Shown: positions 201-36,401 of the stretch, piece after piece | Layout: each line of letters begins with the position of its first letter | Numbering within the stretch: the first letter of the stretch is position 1 | From: a virus | Taxonomy: Duplodnaviria; Caudoviricetes | Direction: 5' to 3' (one strand) | Virus record (IMG/VR): IMGVR_UViG_3300005512_000001 | Location: 128,001-192,000 of that record | DNA length: 64,000 bases | Position numbers and translations under genes: made by a program | The notes under the pieces: generated by a model | Told to the model about the DNA's origin: nothing | Seen by the model: only the letters and a program-made list of their open reading frames with translations | The model's database searches: none

Positions 201-473
201 ATGAATATGTTGCTTAAACTCGGTAAAAATGGCCATCCAATAACTAGAAAAATAAAAGTTCCATTAAGCCATTTAGAACTTAAGCTCATTGATAATTGCG
301 GTGTGGATATTGAAATTGGCGACAGGAAACCAATAATGACTCATATGTTTCTTGTGCGCGGACCTGGAATAAACTCAAATCTTGTTAAAAGTGTTAAGTT
401 ACCAAAACTAACATATGACGACGCATGTGAAGCTATTGCTATTGTAGAATCATACGTCTTACATGGAGATTAA
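201..473 (+). CDS. hypothetical protein
   Basis: 90 aa ORF converging on the large Ser-rich gene; no recognisable motif. Confidence 0.55.
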   Translation: MNMLLKLGKNGHPITRKIKVPLSHLELKLIDNCGVDIEIGDRKPIMTHMFLVRGPGINSNLVKSVKLPKLTYDDACEAIAIVESYVLHGD

Positions 474-3400
474 GCAGAATCACCGTCAATTGCCTCGTAT
501 GCACCCATATCGACCCTTGAACCCTGCGGCCTAGTGACACCATTTATACCAACACTGATATCTTCACCATATAAGTAGAAATACAAGTCAATGTATTCTT
601 GGAGTGACCCATTTCCAGTTCCGCTTGGAGCACCAGCATTAATAGCTGGCGATATTATACTGCCATCTTTAAGGTCGAAGTCATTATTAACTAAATCAAC
701 AAACTCGGGGTCTCCCTCTATGCAACCTTCGCCCTTGCCAGTAGCATTCTGGAAGTCAACTATTGAGGCATAAACTCCACTCCAAAGCATTCTAATGGTA
801 GAATCGCTATGTGGGTCTAATAAATTATATTCCATATCAGAAGTGCTGGCAGTAGAACCCTCAAAATTGATGTGATAATTTCCATCTGTTATCTCGGCTA
901 CGATGTTGTTTATTAAATTAATGCCATTATTAAAGCCAGCAGTTAGTCCAACGTCGCAATTACTTATTGTGTTGTTTATGAAATAAGTGTTGATTGAATT
1001 TCTCGCATGGAAGCCCACACCAATGGTGTATACACTATCTGGGTCTACTACTACATCACCATGGCTCATATTGTATATCTCATTGCCTATGACGTAAAAG
1101 TTTGTTGATTCAGTGGTTTCTATGCCATTCTCACCATCATGGATGCTGTTATTAATAAACCAAACTCTTTCTGGATTATAATGTATAACATTAGTCGCAC
1201 CAGGTCGCGGTTTGTACGCTCTACCAAATGCATATGTCTCATTTTCTGAACATACAACATCTTGGCACTCTTTTATATCAATAGCGTTTTCGCCTTCATG
1301 GTGCATAGTATTTCTAGCGACATAAATAAATTCATCGCTACTTAAATCATCGTCCATTCCATTAACTTGTATTGAATCGCCACCATTGTGATACATTTCA
1401 TTATCTATAACCCACACTCTACGTGCATATGAGTTCACAGTAACAGCATGAATGTCATTTTCATCTACCGATTGCCAATCACCATTATCATATATGATAT
1501 TATTATAAAATATGATATCATATATATAGTCAGTTGACTCTGTGCAGTAAATTGATACTCCGCCACCATCACGGCATGTGCAAGTCCTAATTATAATGTG
1601 ATGCGCATCATTTCTGCAGGTTGCACTTACTAAATCCAAATTTTCAACTATCAAATAATACGATGGATTATAATAACCTATATTAAGAACTCTATCGAGC
1701 CTTGGTAATTCCATATCGCTAGTACCACGCAAAAAGACTGGTAATTCTGCTGTACCATTTGCATATACGGAATTCTTCCCAGCTGCCCCAAGATACCCAT
1801 CTCCATGTACTTCAACAACACTGCCAGCCGCTAGAGTCTGTGGTATTGTTACTCTAGGTAAACTCGGAGTTCCATAAGTATTGCCACTATCTGTTGCGAG
1901 TGGGTCCTCTCTATCAACATAATGCGTATATGGCCCATCAGACCCAATTTTATATGGCTCTGGCCCAGCACCATAATCATAAGTATATTGTTCTCCAGTC
2001 CCATTCAGCCCGGCGTACATCCAATGTGTTTGTTCTATGCTAAATTCAGGTCTTGGTATACCAGTTGGTTTAACCCATATACCAATGCGTTCAATTTGTA
2101 TATTGTTGGTGGTGTCACTCTCACGCACCTCAACAGTTAATGTTCGCCCACGGATTAGAACAGGGTCGCCAATATTTTTCCATGGCCCTTCGGTATCAAC
2201 ATAATCGTCCGGCGGCACTGTCTGGTCTACCGTTTCAGCTTCAAGTAGGTTTGAAATATCAGAGTTTACATTGTTTACAACCCTATATTCTGCTTCAGTA
2301 GACCCAACTGTATCTGGGTCCCATGTAGCAGAAACTTGGTATTCATAACCAGGAGATAGGTTTTCGAATGCAAATACTGCTACAACACCAGAACTAGAAG
2401 AGCTAGTACTCGATGAGCTAACAGAGCTAGATGAACTGCTAGTACTCAATGAACTCGACGAGCTACTTACCGAAGAACTAGAGCTACTTACTGAAGAACT
2501 AGAACTAGACACCGAAGAGCTAGAACTCGATGAACTAGAAGAATAGCCAGATGAACTTGATGAACTCGATGAGCTACTTACTGACGAACTAGAGGAGCTA
2601 GAGGGCACCGCAACCTCGCCAATAGCACCCATAGAGAAAACAGCCATACTATTTCTTGGTTTAATAAGGTCATAATAACCTCTAGCATGCTCATGGATTT
2701 CACCGGCACTCAACGCCCGATTCCACATAGCCGCCATCCCAACCCAACCGTCCCAATAAGAGGTCTCGGCATTCCGGCCACCTATTATTAACGGATGGGA
2801 AGTATCAGCTATATCACCAGCAGTATCAGCGGCATTTTCCGCCCCTATCTCTCCATTATAATAAATAGCGCTATAGCCACTCTTGCGAACACATGTTAAT
2901 ATAAACCAATTTCTCGGGTCACGACCCGATGCTGGGTCAAGACCTAGAGGCCAGTTCGTCTGCCAATTATCGCCGCCTGTCACATCGCCGAACCATAATA
3001 GATTCTCGCTTTGTTGCCATACTAGCTCAAACGAATCGATACCGCTACCAGAACGATAAAATATATATTCTGAGCCAGTGGTAATCACCCCTTTATAATT
3101 TCTGGCCAAAATACTAACAGTGACTTCATTTACATCTAGCCTAGAATTATTAGCAACCTCAACAATCCCCAACGCCATTGCCTGGCCTTCCCAATCCCAA
3201 TTAGGGCCAGTCGGTGTCCCAAATAGTGTTTGGTCGGCAACGTTCATTACTCTGTCGCCAGTTCCTTCCCAGAAAGGCCAGTAACCTACTAATCCATTAG
3301 AAAGAGGATGCTTATTGTTAATGCCTGGTGCCCATATACGTGGTTTAACCATCGTCAATGCATTAGGTGCACCAGCTGGCGATATTTGAGAACTCGATGA

Positions 3401-4489
3401 GCTACTTACTGACGAACTAGAACTAGACACCGAAGAGCTAGAACTCGACGAGCTGCTAGGCGACACTATACTAGAGCTAGATGAACTACTGTATGGTGGT
3501 GATACTATAGAACTCGACGAGCTACTTACTGACGAACTAGAGGAACTACTTACGCTCGATGAACTACTTACTGACGAACTAGAGGAGCTACTTACGCTCG
3601 ATGAGCTACTTACTGAAGAACTACTGCTACTTATGCTCGATGAGGAGCTACTTACTGATGAACTAGAAGAGCTACTTACGCTCGATGAGCTACTTACTGA
3701 CGAACTAGAACTAGACACCGAAGAGCTAGAACTCGATGAGCTGCTAGGCGACACTATACTAGAGCTAGATGAACTACTGTATGGTGGTGATACTATAGAA
3801 CTCGACGAGCTACTTACCGAAGAACTAGAGGAGCTACTTACGCTCGATGAGCTACTTACTGAAGAACTACTGCTACTTATGCTCGATGAGGAGCTACTTA
3901 CTGAAGAACTACTGCTACTTATGCTCGATGAGGAGCTACTTACTGAAGAACTAGAAGAACTGCTCGCACTAGATGAGGAGCTACTTACCGACGAACTACT
4001 GCTACTTATGCTCGATGAGGAGCTACTTACTGAAGAACTAGAAGAACTGCTCGCACTAGATGAGGAGCTACTTACCGACGAACTACTGCTACTTACGCTC
4101 GATGAGGAGCTACTTACTGACGAACTACTGCTACTTATGCTCGATGAGGAGCTACTTACTGATGAACTGCTACTACTAGATGAGCTTGATGAACTCGGGA
4201 CAAAATCTGGGTCATATATAGTGCTAGTAAATTTGTATGCTGATATTTTGCCAGATAATATAAAATCATTAATTTGCGAGGCATTAAAACGCGTTGCTTC
4301 TATATATATAATTTCATCTATAGATAATGTTATAAGTCCACCAACATAGTGTGGAATTCTAGAATGGACCAATATTCGTGAAGCGGGTATAGTTCCACAA
4401 ATTAATGACAGCCTTTGCCCACTAATATTGGTAACAACTATTATTTCTTTGGTCAGACGAGTCTGATTCGTCTTACGTACCCGCTTCAT
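470..4489 (-). CDS. large poly-Ser surface/virion protein with LamG (ConA-like) domain, golvesin/CBM-like domain and right-handed beta-helix (pectin-lyase-like) domain
   Basis: Two poly-Ser tracts. GLVGYWPFWEG...LIIGGR...WDGWVGMAAMWNRALSAGEI is LamG-like. FENLSPGYEYQVSATW...TVDQT is golvesin-like. Repeated IxxNxIYxN / GGDSIQ / ENAIDIK turns and a C-terminal GDPEFVD..DFDL..SPAINAG..DMGAYE end are typical of beta-helix proteins. Confidence 0.8.
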   Translation of the reverse strand: MKRVRKTNQTRLTKEIIVVTNISGQRLSLICGTIPASRILVHSRIPHYVGGLITLSIDEIIYIEATRFNASQINDFILSGKISAYKFTSTIYDPDFVPSSSSSSSSSSSSVSSSSSSISSSSSSVSSSSSSVSSSSSSVSSSSSSASSSSSSSVSSSSSSISSSSSSVSSSSSSASSSSSSSVSSSSSSISSSSSSVSSSSSSISSSSSSVSSSSSVSSSSSSSVSSSSSSIVSPPYSSSSSSSIVSPSSSSSSSSSVSSSSSSVSSSSSVSSSSSSSVSSSSSSISSSSSSVSSSSSVSSSSSSSVSSSSSVSSSSSSSVSSSSSSIVSPPYSSSSSSSIVSPSSSSSSSSSVSSSSSSVSSSSSSQISPAGAPNALTMVKPRIWAPGINNKHPLSNGLVGYWPFWEGTGDRVMNVADQTLFGTPTGPNWDWEGQAMALGIVEVANNSRLDVNEVTVSILARNYKGVITTGSEYIFYRSGSGIDSFELVWQQSENLLWFGDVTGGDNWQTNWPLGLDPASGRDPRNWFILTCVRKSGYSAIYYNGEIGAENAADTAGDIADTSHPLIIGGRNAETSYWDGWVGMAAMWNRALSAGEIHEHARGYYDLIKPRNSMAVFSMGAIGEVAVPSSSSSSSVSSSSSSSSSSGYSSSSSSSSSSVSSSSSSVSSSSSSVSSSSSSLSTSSSSSSVSSSSTSSSSSGVVAVFAFENLSPGYEYQVSATWDPDTVGSTEAEYRVVNNVNSDISNLLEAETVDQTVPPDDYVDTEGPWKNIGDPVLIRGRTLTVEVRESDTTNNIQIERIGIWVKPTGIPRPEFSIEQTHWMYAGLNGTGEQYTYDYGAGPEPYKIGSDGPYTHYVDREDPLATDSGNTYGTPSLPRVTIPQTLAAGSVVEVHGDGYLGAAGKNSVYANGTAELPVFLRGTSDMELPRLDRVLNIGYYNPSYYLIVENLDLVSATCRNDAHHIIIRTCTCRDGGGVSIYCTESTDYIYDIIFYNNIIYDNGDWQSVDENDIHAVTVNSYARRVWVIDNEMYHNGGDSIQVNGMDDDLSSDEFIYVARNTMHHEGENAIDIKECQDVVCSENETYAFGRAYKPRPGATNVIHYNPERVWFINNSIHDGENGIETTESTNFYVIGNEIYNMSHGDVVVDPDSVYTIGVGFHARNSINTYFINNTISNCDVGLTAGFNNGINLINNIVAEITDGNYHINFEGSTASTSDMEYNLLDPHSDSTIRMLWSGVYASIVDFQNATGKGEGCIEGDPEFVDLVNNDFDLKDGSIISPAINAGAPSGTGNGSLQEYIDLYFYLYGEDISVGINGVTRPQGSRVDMGAYEAIDGDSA
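2390..2603 (-). repeat. second poly-Ser coding tract (linker)
   Basis: About 70 codons of mainly Ser between the LamG and golvesin-like domains. Confidence 0.85.
3385..4197 (-). repeat. low-complexity poly-Ser coding tract with internal tandem duplications
   Basis: Recurrent gagctacttactga(c/a)gaacta units; the block encoding SSSSIVSPPYSSSSSSSIVSPSSS occurs twice. Confidence 0.9.
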
Positions 4490-4513
4490 ATATATATATT
4501 TGTCAGATTTGGA

Positions 4514-5470
4514 TTATGACATAAACCCCCTTATGTCTTCTTTACGCTTTTGTACCAACTTCTTTTTGTCTTTTGGCATATCGCCTTCACCCAAAAGCTG
4601 ATCGCAACCTTCCAAGAAGTATTCATATGCAAAATCATCAGTATACACTCGTTCTTCAGCGGTTCTAGTTTTGACGGATTTTAGAAACCCTTTAAATTCC
4701 TCAAAATAACTACCATAAATATGAAACGAATCGACGATATGAACATATTCCCCTATTTTTATACCAAGTTGTGATGCTACATATGATTGCAACTCTACAA
4801 ACGCATACATATTCATAAATGATGCCTTATAGGCATCATTGCTTCTCATATGGACAGTCATATTTAATTTAGAAATATATCCATTATCACAATTGGCACA
4901 ATGCCCCGACCCATGATTGTTATGGCATGTTTTGCATAACGACTTTTCTATTCTAAACCAAAGCCTTTGTAAGCATGCTGGGTCATGGATGCCTAAATCT
5001 TTCCAACACTGCCATGTGACTGCTTGGGCACGCCTGGTGTGGCCACAATTTTTTAGTATTTTGACGCATTGTTCGATTTGGTTTATTAGTCTTTCTTTTG
5101 GAGAATATGTTCCTTTAAACCTGCCATATTCCCAATCTTCTTCTTTTTCTATAATATCATATTCAAACAACCTCTCATGATATGTATATTCCCATTTACC
5201 AGCTGATGGGTCTACCCAGTGGTCATGGACTCCCAAAAGCACCTCATCTCTGTACTTTTCTAAATCATCTAAACCACCTGGAAATGCTCGATGGATACGT
5301 GGTTCAGCCATTGGGTTCAGGATATGTATCATTGCAGTTACATCACGGCTATTCGGGTCATCTGCCTGATCGTATTCTGTTGGGAACATTGCACCATGCC
5401 TCCAGCACTCAAACACAGCTTTTTCCCAGGCAATTGGCAGCGTATCTTCGACAATATGGATTGTTTTCAA
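4514..5470 (-). CDS. thyA: thymidylate synthase (short archaeal-type ThyA family) with a Cys-rich insertion
   Basis: Motifs YTYHERL, TRRAQAVTW, DPACLQ (catalytic Cys), MRSNDA..FMN (Asn gives dUMP specificity), DSFHIY. Probable TTG start at 5470 after GGAG. Confidence 0.8.
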   Translation of the reverse strand: MKTIHIVEDTLPIAWEKAVFECWRHGAMFPTEYDQADDPNSRDVTAMIHILNPMAEPRIHRAFPGGLDDLEKYRDEVLLGVHDHWVDPSAGKWEYTYHERLFEYDIIEKEEDWEYGRFKGTYSPKERLINQIEQCVKILKNCGHTRRAQAVTWQCWKDLGIHDPACLQRLWFRIEKSLCKTCHNNHGSGHCANCDNGYISKLNMTVHMRSNDAYKASFMNMYAFVELQSYVASQLGIKIGEYVHIVDSFHIYGSYFEEFKGFLKSVKTRTAEERVYTDDFAYEYFLEGCDQLLGEGDMPKDKKKLVQKRKEDIRGFMS

Positions 5471-5557
5471 TTTTAATCTCCAAAATTTGTTGTTGGTTCT
5501 AATACATAACGATGGTATATACTGCAAATATAAATGTGGCACTTTAGGAGTACTGAA

Positions 5558-5791
5558 ATGGTCGAAAAAGAACATAATTACCCAAAAACTAGTAGTACAG
5601 AGATGAAAAAGGTCAACAATGCTGTTGTGGGCGATTCTAAGAAACAAACCACATACAACGGCCCACACTTAAATGGTGGAAAGGGCACTGTATATAACCA
5701 AGCCAAAATCACAAATGGTTTTATGACACAAGATTCAAGACCAGGGCATAAACAGCAAGGAAATATAGAGGATAATGCGACTAATAAGTAG
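5558..5791 (+). CDS. hypothetical small protein
   Basis: AGGAG upstream of ATG 5558; hydrophilic ORF. Confidence 0.55.
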   Translation: MVEKEHNYPKTSSTEMKKVNNAVVGDSKKQTTYNGPHLNGGKGTVYNQAKITNGFMTQDSRPGHKQQGNIEDNATNK

Positions 5792-5806: not shown

Positions 5807-6406
5807 ATGAATCTATCAAACACAAAAGTTTATCTATGCGGACAAATTGAAAACGATCCAGAGGCGATGGGTTGGAGATTAGATCTGGCCCGCCGCCTCC
5901 CGCTTATCAACCCAACAATATCTGTTTGGGACCCAATGGTTAAGCCAGAATGGGTTCATCCAGATATTAAAAATAACGAAATGGCCTTCGCATGGAAACA
6001 ATATATCAATAGCAACCCCAGCGATGAGTGGCAAGGCGAAATGTGCCATATTGCTAATAAAAAAGTTCGAAGAATATGCAAACAATTGGCCAATAAATGC
6101 GATTGGATGATTGCTAGAATATGCAAAAAGTTTACATGGGGTAGTATAGATGAGTTGGAAATTGCAATAAACAGGAAAATTCCTGTATTTCTATGGCTAC
6201 CTGATGGATTGATTAGCATATATGGCATAGCTGGAGTCATAGAGGATTACAGCCTGGTCCCATATTATATGCATGAAGATATGGAATCATTACTAACTAC
6301 GATTTCCGATGTAGATAAGGGTATTTCTGATTTGCTGAAGAAAGACCCAGAGACTTGGATGACGTTATCGTGGACTAATGCTGCCTCGGAGACAAATAAT
6401 GCGTAA
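5807..6406 (+). CDS. nucleoside 2-deoxyribosyltransferase / dNMP N-glycosidase family protein
   Basis: N-terminal KVYLCG...WR, WDP, and D-x(9)-GSIDELEIA..RKIPV match the NDT/DNPH1 pattern, with the catalytic Glu retained. Confidence 0.65.
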   Translation: MNLSNTKVYLCGQIENDPEAMGWRLDLARRLPLINPTISVWDPMVKPEWVHPDIKNNEMAFAWKQYINSNPSDEWQGEMCHIANKKVRRICKQLANKCDWMIARICKKFTWGSIDELEIAINRKIPVFLWLPDGLISIYGIAGVIEDYSLVPYYMHEDMESLLTTISDVDKGISDLLKKDPETWMTLSWTNAASETNNA

Positions 6407-7103
6407 AGTAGAATTAGATGTAAACAAACAGTCACAACTAAACAGCGCGACTGAATTTACCAGGAGGCATATGTGTCCTGCGATTGTAGTGTCGCCAGAT
6501 TTGGTTACCGGCGCACATATCGCTAGGTCGGTATCAAGGTCAAACCACAAGATTATCACAGCTGTTGATTGGCCTAAAGGGACGCAATATTTAAGTGATA
6601 AATTCAGGGGAATGCCATCGGAATCAATTAGTGCTGATGGGTTTGAAATTTTACTAACTGCTAATGGAAAGCTTGGCATCCTAAAGGAAATAAAATTCCT
6701 TTCAAATTTCTTTCGTGACCATTTCCCACCAACTATAGAACTTAGGTTTGTCTTGGGGTGGCACATGCAGGATAGAACTGTAGACCAATTTGAGTATATG
6801 GTTGATGCGTGTAAACAAATACCAAATCCTACATTAATCAGAACTACCCACTTAACTAAGATTAGTTCTGCAAATGGGTCTATAGAATCACATAATAGCG
6901 TGATTGATAAAATTCTGGCAATTAGAAATATCCCAATCAAGATTAGTGGCAACATCAACGCTAAATCACGTATTGGCTGCAAAAAAGCTGTAAGATTTGC
7001 ATGCACTTTAGAGCAAGCCACAGTATTACAAAAAGCATTATCAAATAATGCTATTGGTCAAATCAATAAAGCAGTACACGAAGCTGAAGAATCCATTTCG
7101 TAA
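6399..7103 (+). CDS. deoxyribose-phosphate aldolase (DeoC)-like TIM barrel, divergent
   Basis: AIVVSP, AVDWPKG (cf. VIGFPLG), ADGFEIL (cf. ADEIDMV), IKISGNI (cf. VKASGGI). The Schiff-base Lys position appears to be Arg (LIRTT). Confidence 0.5.
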   Translation: MRKVELDVNKQSQLNSATEFTRRHMCPAIVVSPDLVTGAHIARSVSRSNHKIITAVDWPKGTQYLSDKFRGMPSESISADGFEILLTANGKLGILKEIKFLSNFFRDHFPPTIELRFVLGWHMQDRTVDQFEYMVDACKQIPNPTLIRTTHLTKISSANGSIESHNSVIDKILAIRNIPIKISGNINAKSRIGCKKAVRFACTLEQATVLQKALSNNAIGQINKAVHEAEESIS

Positions 7104-7161
7104 ATCTTAGTGTTAAATTCTTTTCATATTGCACCTTCAAATATATCATAGGAGGTGCAAT

Positions 7162-7386
7162 ATGAAAAGAATTATATTAGCACTCATCATCATCTTATTG
7201 TTGCCGGGATGCGGCATATTGGACGGTTCAACCCGTATAGTCCCAGCAGAATCTATGGCCACTAGAGAAATAGAAGAGAAAGGCGAGGGACACACTGCCA
7301 CTGGTGTATTTGTATTTAGGTATTATCCTAAGGGTACGTACCCAAAATTCGCAATGCCTATAGAGGAGAAAAACAATGAGCAATAA
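7162..7386 (+). CDS. small lipoprotein
   Basis: AGGAGG RBS; MKR + hydrophobic stretch + LPGC lipobox. Confidence 0.7.
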   Translation: MKRIILALIIILLLPGCGILDGSTRIVPAESMATREIEEKGEGHTATGVFVFRYYPKGTYPKFAMPIEEKNNEQ

Positions 7387-8266
7387 AGGCATACGAAGAA
7401 CTATCATAGGATTATTGATTAGCACTACCTCGTTGGCTATATTGTGCGTACTATTAACAACGATTGTGATTATGCGGCCAACAGTAATAGAGAAAGTTGA
7501 CTCAGGCCCAGGTGTTGTGACATATGACTTGGGCAATGGCAGGAAAATTACCGCACCAGGCGATGGGATTATAGAATGGAGTGGGAATTTCACTGATATA
7601 ACAACCCCCACATCATTGAGTCGTACAGATGAAGCTGAAGCTGTAGGCGTGGCGTTTAAAGCTACTGGTGCGAATGGCAAGTTTATTTTAGAGATGGACT
7701 TTGAGCTGCCAGAAGCGAACATACCTGATGGCCCAACGAGCTTAGCCGGTCATGCTAATATGGGTGTCAAAGCCATCTTCTCTAATGGCGCAACATCAAT
7801 TTATATTATCGCCGCACTATCGATTTTAGTTGGTTGTGTGCTAGGATTCTGGCTAAAAGCTTGGAAAGTTGGGCTAGGGTTTATAGTTGGCGGCGTGACG
7901 ATGTTTGCAGTCGCAAAATTTTTCACAACATATCCTTGGGTGTTACTCATATTGTTTTTTGTGGTGATAGCTGTAGTCGGATTTATATTATGGGATTACT
8001 GGAAGAAACGAAAAACCGGCGAGACAATGGACGCCATTATTGCTGCTGGCGAGGGCTTGCCAACAAAAGTCAAGGCTGCTTTTACTAAATTAGTAAGTGC
8101 AGAGGCGCAGGCACGTGGTGTTAGCAGCACGGCTAAGAAGATTGTAAGTGAGCTTAAAACTAAGTCTGCAGTGCCGCTAGCTAAAATAGATTTAAGCGAT
8201 GAGTTAAAAGAAATATATGAGACGTTAAAAGAGCAACCAAATAATCTATCGGAGGATGAGGGTTAA
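7376..8266 (+). CDS. multi-pass membrane protein
   Basis: One N-terminal and three central hydrophobic helices; overlaps the lipoprotein gene. Confidence 0.7.
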   Translation: MSNKGIRRTIIGLLISTTSLAILCVLLTTIVIMRPTVIEKVDSGPGVVTYDLGNGRKITAPGDGIIEWSGNFTDITTPTSLSRTDEAEAVGVAFKATGANGKFILEMDFELPEANIPDGPTSLAGHANMGVKAIFSNGATSIYIIAALSILVGCVLGFWLKAWKVGLGFIVGGVTMFAVAKFFTTYPWVLLILFFVVIAVVGFILWDYWKKRKTGETMDAIIAAGEGLPTKVKAAFTKLVSAEAQARGVSSTAKKIVSELKTKSAVPLAKIDLSDELKEIYETLKEQPNNLSEDEG

Positions 8267-8318
8267 ACATTCACGCTGTTTCTTGATGTATTTATTATTA
8301 TATAGATTAGGAGACAGC

Positions 8319-9569
8319 ATGTTTAATACAAACTTCGTATTTCATCCAGGGAAAATAGCAGTACTGCTAGATGGTGGTGCTGGTTCTAGCGGCAAAGGCA
8401 AATTAGCATCTTTTATAGGTGAAAACGCCAGTAATTGGCAATTTTGCTGCCAAGCATTTATGTCGAACGCCGCGCATTGGGTAATCGACGATGATGGCAA
8501 TAAATATCTATACCAAGCCCTAAACTCGGTGGCACACCTAAAAGACAAATATGAAAAGATGTATATCTGCGGTGGTGCTGTTTTAGAACTAGAGCCGCTT
8601 CTAAAAGAAATCGAGCTACATGGGCTGACACCAGATAAACTTGGCATACATCCTGTTGTTGCGATTGTGCAGCAAAAAGATGTGGATTATGAGCGTGGGG
8701 TGTGCAATTTTGAGGGCGATCCGTTTGACAATATTGTTCAATCAGATTGTATGAAGCTTGGTTCCACATTACATGGGGTCGGAGCGGCTAGAGCTAGAAG
8801 AATTTTGAGGCGGTCAGATATCTTGATTGCTAGAGACGTACCAGAGCTGCAACCTTTCCTATGTCAAACAGACTGTGAGATGATGGATAGGTTAGAACGC
8901 GGCCAAGCAGGGCTATTGGAGATAGCCCAAGGCTACCAGCTCGGCTATCTCACAAAGTTCTATCCCAAAACCACATCTCGCAATTGTACTGTCGCAGCCG
9001 GGTTGGATGATTGCGGACTACCACCATCCGTAGTACAAGATGTTCTTATTAACTTTAGAACATTCCCAATTAGAGTTAACAATAATAAATATATTCATGC
9101 TGAAACTGGTGCAGTGCTTACAGGCCAGGATATGGATGAGATGCGGGCCGCTGGCAATGCTGATATGATTAAGACACTCAAGGGCGACTCCGGTGGTTGT
9201 TATGATGACCAAGAAGAAGTGACATGGGAGTATATTACCGAATCAAGTGGCGTTAAGAATCTAGACCCAACAAGGGAGATTCGCGAGAGAACATCACTCA
9301 CAAAACTAGAACGTAGAGCATACACTTTTAGCAAGCAAAATCTACAAGATGCGATAAGGTTCAATCGTGGTAATGGCCACACATATCTATCTATCAATTT
9401 CATAAACTATGTTGATATGGCAATTGAAGGAAAACGTGGCGGGCCTGAGCAATTGACCGACAAAATCAAGACATGGATAGACGCAAATATTGAAATTATA
9501 AACCCAGAGACAGAGACTCTGAAATTCCTGGGTACCGGCGCATTAACAAACGATATGGTCGTATTATAA
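8319..9569 (+). CDS. purZ: N6-succino-2-amino-2'-deoxyadenylate synthase PurZ (adenylosuccinate synthetase paralog)
   Basis: PurA fold motifs NAAH, LGST..GVG, EIAQG, YP.TTSR, RTFPIRV. PurZ-type substitutions: GSSGKG (Ser where PurA has Asp in GDEGKG), TSLTKLERR (Leu where PurA has Arg in TTGRxRR), NFINY replacing the GTP-specific TKLD. AGGAG before ATG 8319. Confidence 0.85.
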   Translation: MFNTNFVFHPGKIAVLLDGGAGSSGKGKLASFIGENASNWQFCCQAFMSNAAHWVIDDDGNKYLYQALNSVAHLKDKYEKMYICGGAVLELEPLLKEIELHGLTPDKLGIHPVVAIVQQKDVDYERGVCNFEGDPFDNIVQSDCMKLGSTLHGVGAARARRILRRSDILIARDVPELQPFLCQTDCEMMDRLERGQAGLLEIAQGYQLGYLTKFYPKTTSRNCTVAAGLDDCGLPPSVVQDVLINFRTFPIRVNNNKYIHAETGAVLTGQDMDEMRAAGNADMIKTLKGDSGGCYDDQEEVTWEYITESSGVKNLDPTREIRERTSLTKLERRAYTFSKQNLQDAIRFNRGNGHTYLSINFINYVDMAIEGKRGGPEQLTDKIKTWIDANIEIINPETETLKFLGTGALTNDMVVL

Positions 9570-10977: not shown

Positions 10978-13900
10978 TCATTCTATCAAACACGCACCGC
11001 CTGCACAAGCCTTCTCAGAACGCAGTGTTGTGTTGTCGTCTTCTTCCCTAAATTTCGTCCAGTCGATTGATTGGCTATTATTAATTAAATTCTGCCAGAT
11101 AGTTTTATCTGATTCTGTCTTAACCTCTTCCCTTGGTGCGTTAACATATTCTTTATCGCCTGTGTCTGGCAACATTGATACGCCGCTGAAGAATTTACGG
11201 TGCCGCCATAGGAATTCTTTTACATCATCCCATTCATCTTGCTTTACAGTAATGGTGTTAGAAACATTATGTGTCACACCAGGTGACGAATTTGGTTTTG
11301 CAGTTCCAGGAATAACCCAATTACGCTGGGTCATTAATACCTTTTCTAAGAATTCAATCGCTGTTAGGTCATGCCTAGTAATAGCATTTTCAGGTGCTTT
11401 GATAGGGAATGTGATTAGGTCTTTCCTGGCATCAACTGAAATGCACATATGTGGGTTCTTATTTTTAAAATGTTTATAGACTGGGCAGTCTGGGTTGGCA
11501 CGCACTCTCCTGAAATATTTCTCTGCATGATGAGTATGAATGCCACTACCAACTGCACCTAATACAATAGATGCAGAACCGCTTGGCTTAATACATGTGA
11601 CTCTGGCTGCGGTGTTAATTCCGATTCTATTTGCAATATCAATATTGGTTTCGACTGCTACCTGTGCAGCGTTTCTCTGGATTTCCGGATTTAGTGCGAT
11701 ATCAGGATTATCCATAACGCCGGTCATCGATACACCAAGTAGTGCCTCTTTATTGCAAACTGCTTCACTTACCCATCCAAGATATTTAAAATCAGTATAG
11801 CCAGCTTGAGCTGTGCCGATAATCGCAGCAGCCTTTACACGCTCATATAGCTCTTGTTCGTTATCAACATCAGATACATTTACTTCTGTTAGGTTGCACA
11901 TCTGCCATCCCCAATGGGTGGCATTTACTTTCAGGTTTGGGAGTTTGCGGTTAGTTGATGCTGCCCACTTGCTGAGGGACATCTTCAATTCTGGTGTGAT
12001 GGTCAACTTCGGATTCATCCCGATTTCTACACAATTATGAACATACAACCCATTAGCGTCAAAAGCAGATGGGCCTGGCACCGTACAATCATACACTGGA
12101 TGAATACCTATATGATCTATTGATTTGATGGTGTCATATATATTATCAGACCAAAAGTTATTGTCTTTAATCTCTTCTAATTTTTTGGCTTTTTGTGCGT
12201 TGCTAAACCCAACCTGTGACGCGAACCTTTTAATCGATTTACCAGATATGATTAAATCATGCGTCGCTGCACAAATTACTTTTTTATATCCACCATGACC
12301 ATTAGGCATTGGAATGCGACGTTCTGCATGCCTTTCTTTAGCAATATTAGATTTTATGCCAAAATAACTTAATATGAGTTGTACTTTTTTTAGGTTATCT
12401 AGTTGATTAGAACACAATCTAATACTATATCTTCCTTTAGACGCGATAGTAACAGTTCCATCTGCATCAAAATATCCAGTCAGAAACCCTCTTAATAACG
12501 ATTTGGATGACTTCAATAATTGATCAGATATATGCTTACCACCACCCTTTAAATTTAAATCTCTGAATAGATGATATGAAACTGCTAAATTATATAATTT
12601 TTTGCTTTCTGATTGCACATAAGGATTTGCAATAATTGCTTTACTAAATTTTTCTCTACTATAATTCGGATGATTTTCGGAATTAAGTCCAGATTTTTGT
12701 AAAATATCATTGGCAAATACCCTATCTTGATATTTATCATCACCCCAAAATTTTATTTGTGCTGAATTGCCACGTGCTCTTTTAACAATATTTCCATCAC
12801 CAATAAACCATCCCAATACCAGCCCCTTGCCCCATTCTTTTTCATCTGAATATTGGTTTGATGCAGAATGGCTACTATGATCATGCAATTTGATGTTGTC
12901 ACCAACCATCAAATTTCCAACAGATTGCCACCCATTATTAGTCATGACTTTGTGATTAGCAGTAATATCAATATGTCGGCCACTTTTCATCTCAACACGT
13001 AACACTTGTTTTGATCCTGTTGGGAAGAACCCATTAGATTTGAACTTTTTACCGTCAACTACTGCTTTAAATGGCACGTCAAGTAGGTCACATACTTGTT
13101 TTAATCCATCATCGGTGCTAACCCAAGTATCGCCAGTAACACATGGGTTTGCGCCGGTATCTTCATCATCTGTAAAATAAAATCCTGGCTCGCCCCATTG
13201 CTCTGTGGCTTTAAAGATTCGACAGAATTGTCTTTTCTTGATGTCTTTGCGATGCAAAACGACAGAATTATTTGCTCTAGCACGCCATGGATGTGTACTA
13301 TACCAGTTGCCAGTTTTTGAATTCATCATCTCACCATCATCTAGTGAGAATAAACAAATCATTGCTGCTTCTCTGATTCCGCCAGCATAAACGGCGTTAG
13401 CTAGCATACACATAATATCATAACATTCGATTGGTTTTAGTTGTCTACCTTGAGCATTTTCAAGCACCTTTCTGACATTGTTTAATGACGACTTCAATGG
13501 CAGATGCCCAGGTGCTCTTCCACCTGACGTTTTGAGTAATGCACCTTGTGGCCTGATTTTGTTGTATGCGAATTCAACATATACTCCTGTACGTAAGTAT
13601 GACCTAATAAGCTCATGGGCAGCGTCGGCCCATCCTTCTATAGTATCAGGTACTATATGGTGAATAACGTTTTTCTTGTCAATAAACTTGACAGGTTCTA
13701 GCTGGTCAATGTGCTGGAATTGGACTGAAAATCCAACGCCTGTTCCACTAAGTAGAAGCCAGAATGCTTCTGAGAATGCACGCGCCCTGTTTATAATAGA
13801 AAAGCTACAGTTATAACCTTTAGCATTATTTGCCTCCATCGCTGGGCCGCCAAACTGCATAGACCTCATTGATGGTAAGACTTGCTTCGCCCGCACTTTA

Positions 13901-14373
13901 TTAAACGCCCATTCCAATTCTTTTGTGATAGAAGGATATCTATCTATATGCATTTGCTCTACACGGTCGACTATTTCTGGGAAAATTTCCCGTCGATTGA
14001 GTTCTGGTTTAAAACGTGAGTATCGCGTCATAGTTACATAATCGGCCATCATTTCAGTGTTTGGCTCTATGCGTAATTTAGCTTGCCTATCACTAAAGAG
14101 GATGAAAGCTTCTGCTACCTCATGGTATTGGTAATCCATTAACTTGCGTTTGACAATACCAGTAATAACATCGGTAGCGATTACACCATTATCAGCGGTA
14201 ATAGCAGCCTCATTGATGATAGATTCGATCAGATTTTCAAATTTACCATTTATGTCATGGCCGGTTTCTGCCGCTGACCTTTTAATCCCATACTCAATTT
14301 TAGACTTGTCAAAATCGACTAATGAACCATCACGTTTTGACACCTTTGGTGTAGTTGCAACAGAAGTGGGCAT
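10978..14373 (-). CDS. nrdJ: class II (B12-dependent, monomeric RTPR-type) ribonucleotide reductase with N-terminal ATP cone and an intein
   Basis: ATP cone VSKRDGSLVDFDKSKI; YNCSF, GTGVGFS, DTIEGWA, GEPGF, NP|C..E, CNLTE, TCIKPSG; C-terminal CAGGAC. Confidence 0.9.
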   Translation of the reverse strand: MPTSVATTPKVSKRDGSLVDFDKSKIEYGIKRSAAETGHDINGKFENLIESIINEAAITADNGVIATDVITGIVKRKLMDYQYHEVAEAFILFSDRQAKLRIEPNTEMMADYVTMTRYSRFKPELNRREIFPEIVDRVEQMHIDRYPSITKELEWAFNKVRAKQVLPSMRSMQFGGPAMEANNAKGYNCSFSIINRARAFSEAFWLLLSGTGVGFSVQFQHIDQLEPVKFIDKKNVIHHIVPDTIEGWADAAHELIRSYLRTGVYVEFAYNKIRPQGALLKTSGGRAPGHLPLKSSLNNVRKVLENAQGRQLKPIECYDIMCMLANAVYAGGIREAAMICLFSLDDGEMMNSKTGNWYSTHPWRARANNSVVLHRKDIKKRQFCRIFKATEQWGEPGFYFTDDEDTGANPCVTGDTWVSTDDGLKQVCDLLDVPFKAVVDGKKFKSNGFFPTGSKQVLRVEMKSGRHIDITANHKVMTNNGWQSVGNLMVGDNIKLHDHSSHSASNQYSDEKEWGKGLVLGWFIGDGNIVKRARGNSAQIKFWGDDKYQDRVFANDILQKSGLNSENHPNYSREKFSKAIIANPYVQSESKKLYNLAVSYHLFRDLNLKGGGKHISDQLLKSSKSLLRGFLTGYFDADGTVTIASKGRYSIRLCSNQLDNLKKVQLILSYFGIKSNIAKERHAERRIPMPNGHGGYKKVICAATHDLIISGKSIKRFASQVGFSNAQKAKKLEEIKDNNFWSDNIYDTIKSIDHIGIHPVYDCTVPGPSAFDANGLYVHNCVEIGMNPKLTITPELKMSLSKWAASTNRKLPNLKVNATHWGWQMCNLTEVNVSDVDNEQELYERVKAAAIIGTAQAGYTDFKYLGWVSEAVCNKEALLGVSMTGVMDNPDIALNPEIQRNAAQVAVETNIDIANRIGINTAARVTCIKPSGSASIVLGAVGSGIHTHHAEKYFRRVRANPDCPVYKHFKNKNPHMCISVDARKDLITFPIKAPENAITRHDLTAIEFLEKVLMTQRNWVIPGTAKPNSSPGVTHNVSNTITVKQDEWDDVKEFLWRHRKFFSGVSMLPDTGDKEYVNAPREEVKTESDKTIWQNLINNSQSIDWTKFREEDDNTTLRSEKACAGGACLIE
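12034..13143 (-). mobile_element. intein with LAGLIDADG homing endonuclease in NrdJ (370 aa)
   Basis: GANP|CVTGDT ... ITANHKV ... LGWFIGDG ... LTGYFDADG ... VYDCTV ... VHN|CVE. Confidence 0.9.
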
Positions 14374-33406: not shown

Positions 33407-34786
33407 ATGAAAATGCCCGTAAAAGAAATTAAAGCATGCATAAAATACACAGGCCCAACTGAGTTTGTTCACTTACATTGTCATACCGTCTATTCAACTC
33501 TAGATGGTGTGCAGACGCCGGAACAACTATTTGCTGCATGTGCTGAACGCGAATGGCCCGCTATTGCGATCACAGAGCATGGTGTGTTATCGTCTGTACC
33601 TGATAATTATTTTGCGGCGAAAGCGAATGGGGTTAAGTATATCGCAGCTTGTGAGATATACTTTAACGACTTTGAGCCATTAAGGCAAGAAATTATAGCT
33701 AATGGCGATACACTTAGTTCTATAAAACAGTCTGACCCTATGTTGCATTCTAGGATAGTTCGTAATCGGCATCTTACATTATTGGCTAAGAACATGACGG
33801 GCTTCAGTAACCTTATTAGGATGGTTACTGAAGCCCATAAATTTGGATTTTATGGCAGACCTAGAATATGGTTTGATAAACTACTTGAATATAAAGAGGG
33901 TCTGATAGTATTGTCTGGATGTTTAAATGGGCCAGTATCTCATGAGATTAGGCAAGATATATTACGGTCGGACAATGGGCGTGGTGCTATAGATTATGTG
34001 TTGAAATTTAGAGAGGCATTCGGAGATGATTATTATCTAGAATTACAAATGCCATGTCTTCCGGATGCTGATGCTAAAGATAAACCAGCGTTTTGGGTAT
34101 TAGACAAAATCTCTAAGAAGTTCAACATTCCATCTGTTTTGACTAATGATGCGCATTATTTAAACCGGGAAGATTTTCAAATCCAAAAACTAATGATGGC
34201 CATTAGTCAGAATTTGACAATAGATTCTCCTGATTTATTCCACGTCAATAGTGATGAACAATTCCTAAAAACTAGGGCTGAGCTATATGATACTTTCAAG
34301 CGGCATGGTTATGACAAACATACTGGCGATGACCGATTCGAAATCATGTGCGACAATACGTTGGCTGTGGCTGGTAAATGTGAATATTTCGAACCAGACC
34401 TAGAGCCGAAAATACCCACTGGCGACGGCGACCCCGTAAAATTGAAACAAATGGTTGTTCGAGAGCTTATGCGTCGTGGTTTGCATAAATGTGCTGATAA
34501 ATATGTTGTTGATAACCGCGAAGTTACATATTTTGAACAAGCTAAGATTGAACTCAATAGGTTCATAGAAAAGGGGTTCGCTAGTTATTTTTTAATTACC
34601 CGAGATTTGATACAGTTTAGTCTATCTAATGGATGGCCTATAGGGCCTAGAGGTAGTGTGGGTGGCTCGCTAGTATGTTATTTGCTTGGCATCACAGAAT
34701 TAGACCCATTGAAATGGGGGCTATCGTTTAATAGGTTTTTATCGCCATCGCGTGGTGGCTACATGTTAAATATAAAGGCTGAATAA
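33407..34786 (+). CDS. dnaE: DNA polymerase III alpha, N-terminal half (PHP domain to first palm segment)
   Basis: HLHCHTVYSTLDG, TEHG, HLTLLAKN, TNDAHY, GFASYF, GPRGSVGGSLVCYLLGITELDP, FNRFLSPSR; ends before PDID. Confidence 0.9.
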   Translation: MKMPVKEIKACIKYTGPTEFVHLHCHTVYSTLDGVQTPEQLFAACAEREWPAIAITEHGVLSSVPDNYFAAKANGVKYIAACEIYFNDFEPLRQEIIANGDTLSSIKQSDPMLHSRIVRNRHLTLLAKNMTGFSNLIRMVTEAHKFGFYGRPRIWFDKLLEYKEGLIVLSGCLNGPVSHEIRQDILRSDNGRGAIDYVLKFREAFGDDYYLELQMPCLPDADAKDKPAFWVLDKISKKFNIPSVLTNDAHYLNREDFQIQKLMMAISQNLTIDSPDLFHVNSDEQFLKTRAELYDTFKRHGYDKHTGDDRFEIMCDNTLAVAGKCEYFEPDLEPKIPTGDGDPVKLKQMVVRELMRRGLHKCADKYVVDNREVTYFEQAKIELNRFIEKGFASYFLITRDLIQFSLSNGWPIGPRGSVGGSLVCYLLGITELDPLKWGLSFNRFLSPSRGGYMLNIKAE

Positions 34787-35247
34787 TGTCTAAATTTACA
34801 AAATTAGCTGCTATGCTTAGGCGAGAATCAGAATATTCGCATTGGGCATATGCAAATGGGTCCGCTGTGTGGTCCAAGATTGTTAAATGGTTGGCGGAAA
34901 TTGAAAAATCATCTGAATTAGACTTTGATGAGTATCAATCAAAATCGCGGGCGACAGCCATTTACCCAAACTTAAATGACAATATTGCATATCCGGCTTT
35001 AGGATTGGCCGGTGAGTCTGGGGAAGTATGTGAGAAAGTCAAAAAGATTATTCGTGATAAAGATGGTGTTATTGATGATGATGATAGGTCAGAATTAGCG
35101 AAAGAGCTTGGGGATGTTTTATGGTACCTATCTAATATAGCATCTGAACTTAATATAAGCCTAGGTGGTGTGGCAAGAATAAATATTGATAAACTTGAAA
35201 GCAGAATGAAGCGTAATGCGCTTCATGGTGATGGTGATAATCGATGA
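34786..35247 (+). CDS. mazG: MazG-like nucleotide pyrophosphohydrolase
   Basis: LGLAGESGEVCEKVKK...KELGDVLWY...NIDKL. Confidence 0.85.
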   Translation: MSKFTKLAAMLRRESEYSHWAYANGSAVWSKIVKWLAEIEKSSELDFDEYQSKSRATAIYPNLNDNIAYPALGLAGESGEVCEKVKKIIRDKDGVIDDDDRSELAKELGDVLWYLSNIASELNISLGGVARINIDKLESRMKRNALHGDGDNR

Positions 35248-35621
35248 ACAATAAAAATCTTATAGAGCGTTATCCAGAGGCTATTAATGTTCTTAAGCGT
35301 AGTTTACGTATATTGACATCGTTAAAAGTGGAACTTGCCGCTGCGGCGATATCGATGAAATTGGTGGATGTATTAGACTGTCTAGTTAAGAAAGATTTCA
35401 AACAGTCACTTGATGATTTATGGGCATGCTCACTAGTTGTGCAGCGCATTTTGTATGATGCGTTTTCGGAGAAGATTGGGAAAGAGTCTGAGCGAGCTAT
35501 TGTTGCGAAGTGCGCTGCTGATGATGGGGAGTTTGAAAAAGCCGCTAGGCAATATATACTAGCAAACACAGAAATTACTAAATTAACTGGGTTTAGTTCT
35601 CTATTTTTGGATAAAAAATGA
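35244..35621 (+). CDS. hypothetical protein
   Basis: Coupled ORF. Confidence 0.6.
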   Translation: MNNKNLIERYPEAINVLKRSLRILTSLKVELAAAAISMKLVDVLDCLVKKDFKQSLDDLWACSLVVQRILYDAFSEKIGKESERAIVAKCAADDGEFEKAARQYILANTEITKLTGFSSLFLDKK

Positions 35622-35998
35622 GGTCGATAGCATACATAGTTACAGGACGCCCTAAGAATAGGGCTGATTGTTTAGATTACGCATTTAAGCGTAATCTAAT
35701 GTATATTTCTTATGAGCTACATGTTAGGGGTGTTGCTAACGAAGATTATGCATATAAAGAATTATATGCGACATTCGTATGGAGATTTGATAGCACAACG
35801 ATAGCATATGATGAGGTGTATGGGGCATGGTATTATCATGAAGATGATGAAAGGAAAGGGATTAGCATTGAAAATGCGAACCGCCGGTTAAAACATGCAG
35901 TTGACGTTATAAATAGCAGAATCGGAACTGATTTACAATATGACAAGCAGTTTGAGCATAGCTTAATTATTGATGGAGATAACGATGAGGCAAATTGA
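35618..35998 (+). CDS. hypothetical protein
   Basis: Coupled ORF. Confidence 0.6.
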   Translation: MRSIAYIVTGRPKNRADCLDYAFKRNLMYISYELHVRGVANEDYAYKELYATFVWRFDSTTIAYDEVYGAWYYHEDDERKGISIENANRRLKHAVDVINSRIGTDLQYDKQFEHSLIIDGDNDEAN

Positions 35999-36401
35999 AA
36001 TTTTTGCAGCAAGTAGTAGAGACAATCAAATGGCAAGTTATGGTGCAGTGCTGCATGATGCCACTTTAGATGAGAAGTTTGAGTCATCGCAAATAATTGG
36101 TGATTATTCAAGGAACCAAGCAGATTTGATTGCTATGGTAATGGCATTGCGATGTGTTAAGACTGAATTTAAAGATGCCGAGATCATATTACATAGTCCG
36201 CCAGCATATGCCTCGCAGGTGGTTGAGAGGAACGACGATAACAAGTGGGTTTCAAACTCAAAAGCGAATATAGATATTGTGCGAGAGGTCCGGGGTTTGA
36301 TTGAAGAGTTTCCCAATTTGATGATTAAAAAATCTAGCGCCAACGAGGCGGCATTCAAAAGATGCATTGAGATTGCTAAAATATGTCTAAACAACAAGTA
36401 A
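35985..36401 (+). CDS. RNase HI-fold protein, apparently catalytically degenerate
   Basis: YGAVL, SRNQADLIAMVMAL, W...KANIDIV align with RNase HI, but the DG and TDS acidic residues are missing. Confidence 0.55.
   Translation: MRQIEIFAASSRDNQMASYGAVLHDATLDEKFESSQIIGDYSRNQADLIAMVMALRCVKTEFKDAEIILHSPPAYASQVVERNDDNKWVSNSKANIDIVREVRGLIEEFPNLMIKKSSANEAAFKRCIEIAKICLNNK

Follow-up and report, generated by a model that had tools for sequence, protein, structure and literature searches.

The genome of an uncultured jumbo phage of 341 kb contains a pair of small overlapping genes, ORF1 and ORF2, upstream of a homologue of purZ. We propose that the two proteins, which are predicted to be a divergent member of the nucleoside deoxyribosyltransferase (NDT) superfamily and a triose-phosphate isomerase (TIM) barrel of the deoxyribose-phosphate aldolase (DERA) type, are coupled enzymes that edit the deoxynucleotide pool of a PurZ-encoding jumbo phage without DatZ, a reading for which we consider the case evenly balanced. 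It builds on the folds, the conserved residues, the coupling of the genes and their co-occurrence with purZ, from which we infer the substrates, the direction of the reaction and all of the chemistry of ORF2. The stretch analyzed here (the window, 64,000 nucleotides) comprises bases 128001-192000 of one 341,434-bp IMG/VR virus record, IMGVR_UViG_3300005512_000001, a record with direct terminal repeats and a completeness rating of 100%. Phages with 2-aminoadenine (Z) in their genomes must synthesize dZTP and also exclude dATP from their DNA. To our knowledge there are two solutions to dATP exclusion, DatZ on the one hand and DutZ with DmtZ on the other; the NDT/DERA-like module would be a third arrangement, represented by about 230 clusters (50% identity) in uncultured jumbo phages.

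The NDT half of such a module is already known from a 2026 paper; what is new here is the DERA-like partner and the arrangement in jumbo phages. DmtZ, an enzyme of PurZ0 actinophages described in Nucleic Acids Research in February 2026, hydrolyzes dAMP to adenine and deoxyribose-5-phosphate (dR5P) and transfers dR5P to Z; the step before it, the conversion of dATP to dAMP, is carried out by the dUTPase-like DutZ (Poubanne et al., PMC12884076). Its key residues are Y6, D12, P57, N77, E103 and W124, and Pro57 serves to exclude water (PMC12884076). NDTs of the PF05014 type have furthermore been found to be statistically associated with dZ contigs, and one of them has a dA-preferring transferase activity (Yang et al., bioRxiv 10.1101/2025.10.22.683976). 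An aldolase-like partner appears in neither paper; the only aldolase in PMC12884076 is the E. coli DeoC of a coupled assay, and a literature search for PurZ together with jumbo phages or aldolases returned no further relevant paper on a DERA-like partner. The chemistry that had been put forward in the original prediction, namely hydrolysis of dAMP or exchange of its adenine for Z, appears sound by analogy, yet it is no longer new, because DmtZ has been shown to carry it out (PMC12884076).

ORF1 and ORF2 are real genes, because both have relatives and both yield confident AlphaFold2 (AF2) models. ORF1 has 34 metagenomic relatives with 39-68% identity. For ORF2 there are 23 near relatives, and a profile search extends the family to 229 clusters at 50% identity with E<=0.001 (205 with E<=1e-10), all from uncultured large phages. 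The ATG at 6399 is favored as the start of ORF2 by homologue alignments, by the gene-caller product and by a GGAGA sequence at 6388-6392, 6 nt upstream; with this start the two genes overlap by 8 nt (ATGCGTAA), and the layout of the junction suggests that their translation is coupled. The two genes likewise overlap or abut in contigs L118, L119, L120, L126, L127 and L128. The ORFs, their overlap and their neighbors are as the original prediction had described them, with an NDT-like and a DeoC-like gene between thyA and purZ. Sequence searches of both proteins against Pfam, PHROGs and the PDB gave nothing significant, megablast and tblastn searches with them against 50,697 phage records gave no match, megablast of the region against 50,697 GenBank phage records found no similar record, and no relatives were recovered from IMG/VR in a pattern scan based on the ORF1 family. 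Profile searches with hidden Markov models (HMMs) and structure prediction, both suggested in the original prediction, thus differed in outcome: neither protein has a significant HMM match, and the folds of both are predicted with confidence.

For ORF1, the AF2 model (predicted local distance difference score, pLDDT, 92.2; predicted template-modeling score, pTM, 0.88) indicates an NDT-superfamily fold. Its best structural match is the NDT of Chroococcidiopsis (CtNDT; Foldseek E 4e-6); in VIA-align the NDTs reach Z-scores of 14.0-14.4, with a root-mean-square deviation (rmsd) of 2.4-2.6 Å over about 135 amino acids (aa), and YtoQ, DNPH1/Rcl, MilB and BcmB come next with Z-scores of 11-12.6. The residues that are invariant in 33 sequences of the ORF1 family include Y9, G12, E15, W23, R24, P43, W49, R88, C98 and A103, together with the block FTWGSIDELE (109-118), P126, Y139 and G140. 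In profile alignments E116 falls on the catalytic Glu, which is E76 in the PF05014-type proteins that neighbor the DERA-like gene in other jumbo phages and E103 in DmtZ. Since Y9 and E116 are invariant and E116 coincides with the catalytic Glu, the Tyr/Glu pair of the NDT triad is kept, in agreement with the earlier assignment of an NDT/DNPH1-like protein that retains its catalytic Glu.

The relationship to DmtZ was assessed with the DmtZ sequences of Ghobes, Sapo, Hiyaa, HunterDalle and Wayne. The PF05014-type neighbors of jumbo phages align with DmtZ over 99 columns (hhalign E 1.8e-5) and share with it a (D/E).(..)AWT.HG stretch. The ORF1 family (A1) itself gave an E of 0.0043 and a probability of 8%; when distant members were included, the E became 1.2e-4 with a probability of 55%, over 48 columns located only around the catalytic Glu. 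In the reverse direction, a DmtZ HMM matched some ORF1-family members with 13-20 bits. By eye, ORF1 and DmtZ share a Tyr, an acid six residues on, (W/Y)(D/E)P, WG...E.E.A and D...S; E15, six residues after Y9, and P43 in the sequence WDP match the spacing and motif of D12 and P57 of DmtZ, in a part of the protein outside the hhalign coverage. Based on these comparisons ORF1 plausibly works like DmtZ, yet it is not assignable to the DmtZ family, and we regard it as a candidate DmtZ-like deoxynucleoside monophosphate (dNMP) N-glycosidase or dR5P transferase.

The AF2 model of ORF2 (pLDDT 88.1, pTM 0.84) indicates a DERA-type TIM barrel, the DeoC-like barrel of the original prediction. DERA was matched by Foldseek with an E of 4e-9 and by VIA-align with a best Z-score of 20.3 (rmsd 2.6 Å over 199 aa); DERA and designs derived from it take all of the top 48 places in VIA-align, ahead of homocitrate synthase, the next family, with a Z-score of 16. 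A search of the ESM Atlas with ORF2 returned DeoC clusters with a template-modeling score of 0.76. The Atlas's own model of ORF2, with a pLDDT of 0.40 and meaningless structural neighbors, was set aside. At the level of sequence, a profile search of PDB sequences with the ORF2 family found no DERA and hhalign of the family against the single E. coli DeoC was non-significant; a DeoC profile of 80 loci, all enterobacterial and at least 89% identical, offered little gain over the single sequence. The residue mapping was taken from a low-stringency hhalign (E 0.2) that was accepted solely on the ground that its register agrees with the structural ranges: it pairs ORF2 1-224 with DeoC 12-258, and the structural alignment places model residues 1-216 on E. 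coli DERA 12-250. Corresponding ORF2/DeoC segments are LIRTT/FIKTS, which puts R148 on the Schiff-base K167, IKISGN/FKPAGG, which puts K181 on K201, VDWPKG/TNFPHG and RFACT/RFGAS. A manual strand-by-strand reading would in addition set R116 on DERA K137 (beta5) and E83 on D102; hhalign placed the E83/D102 segment differently.

Conservation in the ORF2 family was examined over 160 relatives. K68 is present in 99%, R116 and R148 in 95% each and K181 in 92%, position 83 is acidic (E/D) in 100%, and G81, E97, D57, E5, D80 and Q206 are also among the most conserved. At least 11 near-invariant charged residues line the barrel, and relatives in a 35-sequence alignment fall to about 24% identity to ORF2. 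Because these charged residues are kept across such divergent relatives, we argue that ORF2 is an active enzyme or a specific binder. The usual pattern at positions 116, 148 and 181 is Arg-Arg-Lys. In a small, well-supported DERA-like clade (P0158, P0160, P0163, P0177 and P0191) residue 148 is Lys, residue 116 is Cys or Ile and residue 181 is Val, Ile or Thr, as though the active-site lysine had been relocated in a coupled manner. The C-terminal extensions of longer relatives (about 290-360 aa) contain no Pfam domain and so give no Rosetta-stone clue.

We then consider where the pair occurs. Members of the ORF2 family were located by a pattern scan in 23 IMG/VR contigs (30-388 kb). Of these loci, 22 have a PurA-like gene at a distance of 0.5-5 kb downstream, in one case cut by the contig end; in the 23rd, L026, a complete 371-kb genome, purZ is 175 kb away. 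The sequence GS[SCT]GKG, in which Ser replaces the catalytic Asp of PurA (Asp13), is found in all 23 syntenic PurZ homologues and in that of the window, and this replacement is the mark of the PurZ group (PMC12884076). The window PurZ matches phrog_1211 (E 1.7e-35) and PF00709 (E 3.6e-12), and its best matches in the PDB are the PurZ proteins of phiVC8 (E 4e-23) and S-2L. Flavobacterium phage MaF61, which has the closest cultured PurZ-like match, was considered as a carrier of the pair and rejected. The DERA-like gene is immediately preceded, in 20 of the 23 loci, by a gene for a 125-220-aa protein above the PF05014 threshold (E 1.9e-9), and in the window, L026, L117-L120 and L126-L128 this slot is filled by an ORF1-type NDT (A1 HMM E 1e-19 to 1e-40).

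A further sample consisted of ten more distant ORF2 relatives on metagenome contigs, with DNA for eight. An ORF1-family gene abuts or overlaps the DERA-like gene in seven of the eight, and for the two without DNA an upstream gene of 191-199 aa is listed with PF15891/PF05014 matches. Half of the ten contigs have purZ within a few kb; the tenth is only 1.9 kb long, and the partial contig L118 has no purZ in the 14 kb examined. A gene of the DCD/dUTPase fold directly follows the DERA-like gene in L120, L126, L128, L129 and L026, and L026 and L120 also have purZ. This position recalls the linkage of DmtZ and DutZ. The constant core is therefore the NDT-fold gene with the DERA-like gene; purZ joins this core very often as a third member, with the dUTPase-fold gene as an alternative or an addition.

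Several observations weigh against a pool-editing module of this kind, some in the proteins and some in their distribution. ORF1 is below the Pfam thresholds for NDTs (PF15891, 15.4 bits and E 0.024, against a 30-bit cut-off); among its relatives, 12 of 33 match PF15891 and 10 of 33 match PF05014, none better than E 1.8e-4. At the third position of the triad, an Asp or Asn about 24-26 residues before the Glu, hhalign aligns Cys91 of ORF1 with Asn77 of DmtZ; the conserved D42, N84, D99 and D115 are alternative candidates for this residue. The DeoC model PF01791 matches none of 35 ORF2-family members even at E<=10. Position 148, at the Schiff-base lysine of DERA (K167, beta6), is occupied by Arg in 153 of the 160 relatives and by Lys in the other 7, so that the Arg noted as a caveat in the original prediction is a property of the whole family; the beta5 lysine is missing from ORF2 as well (R116). 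Four to five members have Lys at neither 148 nor 181, and a strict rule of one lysine, on beta6 or beta7, was softened for this reason. Z in the DNA of this phage, moreover, is a prediction from its genes.

The substitutions in ORF2 bring in the view that it is a non-catalytic pseudo-aldolase, a subunit that would regulate, scaffold or sequester product by binding dR5P, a nucleotide or the NDT enzyme. Adjacency and overlap with the NDT gene suggest a complex, and the replacement of both the Schiff-base and the beta5 lysine by Arg in 95% of the family, with no match to the DeoC HMM, fits the same picture. We nevertheless find this quite unlikely, as the near-invariant E5, D57, K68, D80, E/D83, E97, R116, R148, K181 and Q206 (160 sequences) look like an active site, and in one clade the Schiff-base position is Lys again, while positions 116 and 181 have changed in compensation.

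With respect to distribution, the partial contigs L126, L128 and L129 have no purZ within 8 kb of the DERA-like gene, and in L129 this gene has a dUTPase-fold neighbor and no NDT partner was seen; because of these three contigs the module may not be restricted to Z phages. The co-occurrence with purZ that the original prediction had offered as a check holds in all 23 IMG/VR records and fails, within 8 kb, in the three partial contigs. In these contigs the DERA-like gene is followed by the DCD/dUTPase-fold gene, and Mom-like, methyltransferase, glycosyltransferase and ThyA genes are among the neighbors, as might be expected if the pair disposed of whatever canonical dNMP is replaced in a particular phage (dCMP, dTMP/dUMP, dGMP), with the NDT-fold enzyme destroying the dNMP and the DERA-like enzyme dealing with the dR5P, and were linked to purZ through a shared DNA-metabolism neighborhood, with no tie to adenine or Z. 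The location of the module in a conserved replication/repair block next to an SbcC-like gene is in line with this, and a ThyA-like gene of 384 aa adjoins the pair in the window. The latter, however, is a genome-specific insertion and lies outside the NDT/DERA-like module, because the gene order conserved among the 23 IMG/VR loci lacks it. A PurZ-type gene, in turn, is present in all 23 IMG/VR records, in both complete genomes (G000 and G001) and in five of the eight additional contigs above 10 kb in length; the three exceptions are partial contigs, and L026 and L120 share the DCD-type neighbor yet have purZ. We therefore judge general dNMP disposal to be unlikely.

For the coupled module that we prefer, the following scheme is proposed. 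Glu116 of ORF1, positioned by Tyr9, would attack C1' of a dNMP, most likely dAMP, to release the base and form a deoxyribosyl-5-phosphate-enzyme intermediate, which would be resolved by water to give dR5P or possibly by Z to give dZMP. ORF2, as a descendant of DERA, would take the dR5P and dispose of it, likely by a retro-aldol-type reaction with a lysine other than that of beta6 (K181 or K68), to which Arg148 would provide a neighboring positive charge. PurZ (8256-9569) would make the dZ precursor from dGMP; dAMP and dGMP would in turn come from the triphosphates through a MazG-like or dUTPase-fold enzyme. dR5P is the natural ligand of DERA, and its build-up is inhibitory to growth in deoC mutants of E. 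coli. Destruction of a quarter of the dNMP pool would leave a phage with much dR5P, which provides a rationale for disposal. A more far-reaching version, which we offer tentatively and hold to be somewhat improbable, is that the DERA-fold family is a new enzyme class with a relocated nucleophilic lysine (K181 or K68), the obligate partner of NDT-type dNMP N-glycosidases in a 'dNMP incinerator' (dNMP to base, triose phosphate and acetaldehyde) that replaces DatZ-type triphosphohydrolases in base-replaced jumbo phages.

The pair might also be anabolic, with ORF1 acting mainly as a dR5P transferase (dAMP + Z or G to dZMP or dGMP + A) that feeds dZTP synthesis and ORF2 carrying out another reaction of the PurZ pathway, for example on a succinylated intermediate. 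DmtZ does transfer to Z (PMC12884076), P43 of ORF1 lies in (W/Y)(D/E)P like the water-excluding Pro57 of DmtZ, and two Arg and two Lys in the barrel of ORF2 would suit a polyanionic ligand. Set against this, free Z base has no known source, a phospho-sugar is the ligand suggested by the DERA fold and by phosphate-loop motifs that are partly retained (KISGN, RFACT), and nothing in the analysis ties ORF2 to lyase chemistry; we consider an anabolic role very unlikely.

The rest of the Z gene set was sought in the window and in the complete 341-kb genome. Neither contains a match to HD_3 (PF13023) or to the YfbR-like PF12917, so that the absence of an HD-domain DatZ, noted earlier for the window, extends to the whole genome; DUF550 has no match in the complete genome either. 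The sole HD match in the genome (C1:91984-93396, outside the window) is a 470-aa protein of the polyA-polymerase/CCA-adding type and was rejected as DatZ. The genome's dUTPase-family gene is far from the pair. The MazG-domain protein is a candidate dNTP pyrophosphohydrolase that could supply dAMP or dGMP; its gene is not adjacent to the pair, and a PDB search with the protein gave no specificity information. The genome further encodes a split DnaE-type DNA polymerase, a class II ribonucleotide reductase with an intein, ClpP and a CCA-adding enzyme.

Table 1. Genes and sites in the window, and dUTPase-fold genes in related contigs
Feature	Position	Strand	Description
ThyA-like gene	4514-5668	-	PF00303 E 7.5e-13; 384 aa
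ORF1, NDT-superfamily protein (predicted), divergent (ORF1/c59 type)	5807-6406	+	199 aa
Gene junction	6388-6406	+	GGAGA Shine-Dalgarno-like site inside the end of ORF1; ORF2 ATG overlaps the ORF1 stop (ATGCGTAA)
ORF2, DERA-fold TIM barrel (predicted)	6399-7103	+	234 aa (241 aa from 6378)
PurZ-type (2-amino)adenylosuccinate synthetase homologue	8256-9569	+	437 aa; P-loop GSSGKG
MazG-domain protein	34786-35247	+	153 aa; PF03819 E 2.4e-11
DCD/dUTPase-fold gene	L120:10693-11175		
DCD/dUTPase-fold gene	L126:8884-9465		
DCD/dUTPase-fold gene	L128:8945-10246		
DCD/dUTPase-fold gene	L129:6963-7523		
DCD/dUTPase-fold gene	L026:10662-11135		

Upstream of the pair, the gene order common to the window genome and the IMG/VR contigs is an SbcC-like gene followed by four conserved genes. 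Between this block and ORF1, positions 470-5668 (minus strand) hold an insertion of a gene for a 1339-aa Laminin_G_3/lectin-like protein and the ThyA-like gene, the product of which is long for a thymidylate synthase and is possibly a dNMP hydroxymethylase. Between ORF2 and purZ, positions 7129-8266 (plus strand) encode two proteins, one of 85 aa that has a lipobox (LPGC) as lipoprotein signal and a multi-pass membrane protein of 296 aa; these two genes are likewise an insertion, missing from the syntenic loci of other phages. In L005 (12506-13291) and in the same slot of 19 other IMG/VR loci, a 224-295-aa protein directly follows purZ; it has a weak match to AP_endonuc_2 (a xylose-isomerase-like TIM barrel), and no homologue of it was found in the window genome. 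In L008 (11708-15346) the PurZ-like ORF is 1212 aa long, about three times the usual length, with PurZ matches at both ends, and probably carries an inserted element such as an intein. Further along the window, positions 10978-14373 (minus strand) encode a class II (B12-type) ribonucleotide reductase of 1131 aa with an ATP-cone and an intein that contains a LAGLIDADG endonuclease domain. The gene for the DnaE-type Pol III alpha subunit is in two pieces, at 33407-34786 (PHP and the start of the NTPase domain) and 36383-38899 (the remainder, with fingers and HhH), and the MazG-domain gene and several small ORFs lie between them (34786-36401). A promoter/terminator scan gave a result no better than that for shuffled sequence.

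If the proposal is correct, the module would be a DmtZ-like glycosidase coupled to a re-tooled aldolase barrel, in the form of a defined pair of small proteins. The ORF2 family would be a natural experiment in what becomes of a class I aldolase active site after loss of the Schiff-base lysine, and the pair would serve as a marker for candidate Z-DNA (or otherwise base-replaced) jumbo phages in metagenomes.

Comparison with known systems places the pair closest to DmtZ. ORF1 is predicted to be, like DmtZ, an NDT-fold enzyme in a purZ-bearing phage without DatZ; both have the catalytic Tyr and Glu, an acid six positions beyond this Tyr seems by eye to be common to them as well (E15 in ORF1, D12 in DmtZ), and in both cases the gene is tightly linked to a second pool-editing gene. 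Unlike DmtZ, ORF1 has a helical insert of about 45 aa, and a Cys aligns with Asn77; its partner is a DERA-fold protein, whereas that of DmtZ is a fused or adjacent dUTPase-like DutZ, and its host is a jumbo phage with a DnaE-type polymerase, compared with a 45-kb siphovirus with DpoZ. With the nucleotide N-glycosidases DNPH1/Rcl and MilB/BcmB, ORF1 shares the predicted fold (Z-scores 11-12) and no significant sequence similarity, and compared with these enzymes it has longer helical inserts and a C-terminal extension. Six residues before its catalytic Glu, ORF1 has Thr110, a small hydroxyl residue, at a position that we take to be the phosphate-binding Ser of DNPH1 and an Asp in nucleoside NDTs.

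ORF2 shares with DERA/DeoC (PF01791; PDB 6D33 and 1JCL) the TIM-barrel fold and a series of strand-end motifs, namely P after beta2, (F/W)P.G after beta3, what appears to be a shared acid on beta4, a Lys on beta7 (K201/K181) and RF(G/A) on beta8. DERA Lys167, the Schiff-base residue, and Lys137 both correspond to Arg in ORF2, and there is no HMM-level similarity. What sets the ORF2 family apart from DERA is, further, an additional invariant lysine in the beta3 loop (Lys68), its restriction to phage contigs and its almost constant pairing with an NDT-fold gene. With the canonical PurZ-DatZ-MazZ(-DpoZ) clusters of S-2L and phiVC8, finally, this phage has in common a PurZ with Ser for the PurA Asp and a MazG-domain gene; unlike them it is without DatZ and DUF550 and has a replicative polymerase of the split DnaE type, and its exclusion of dA would have to proceed via dAMP rather than by hydrolysis of dATP to dA.

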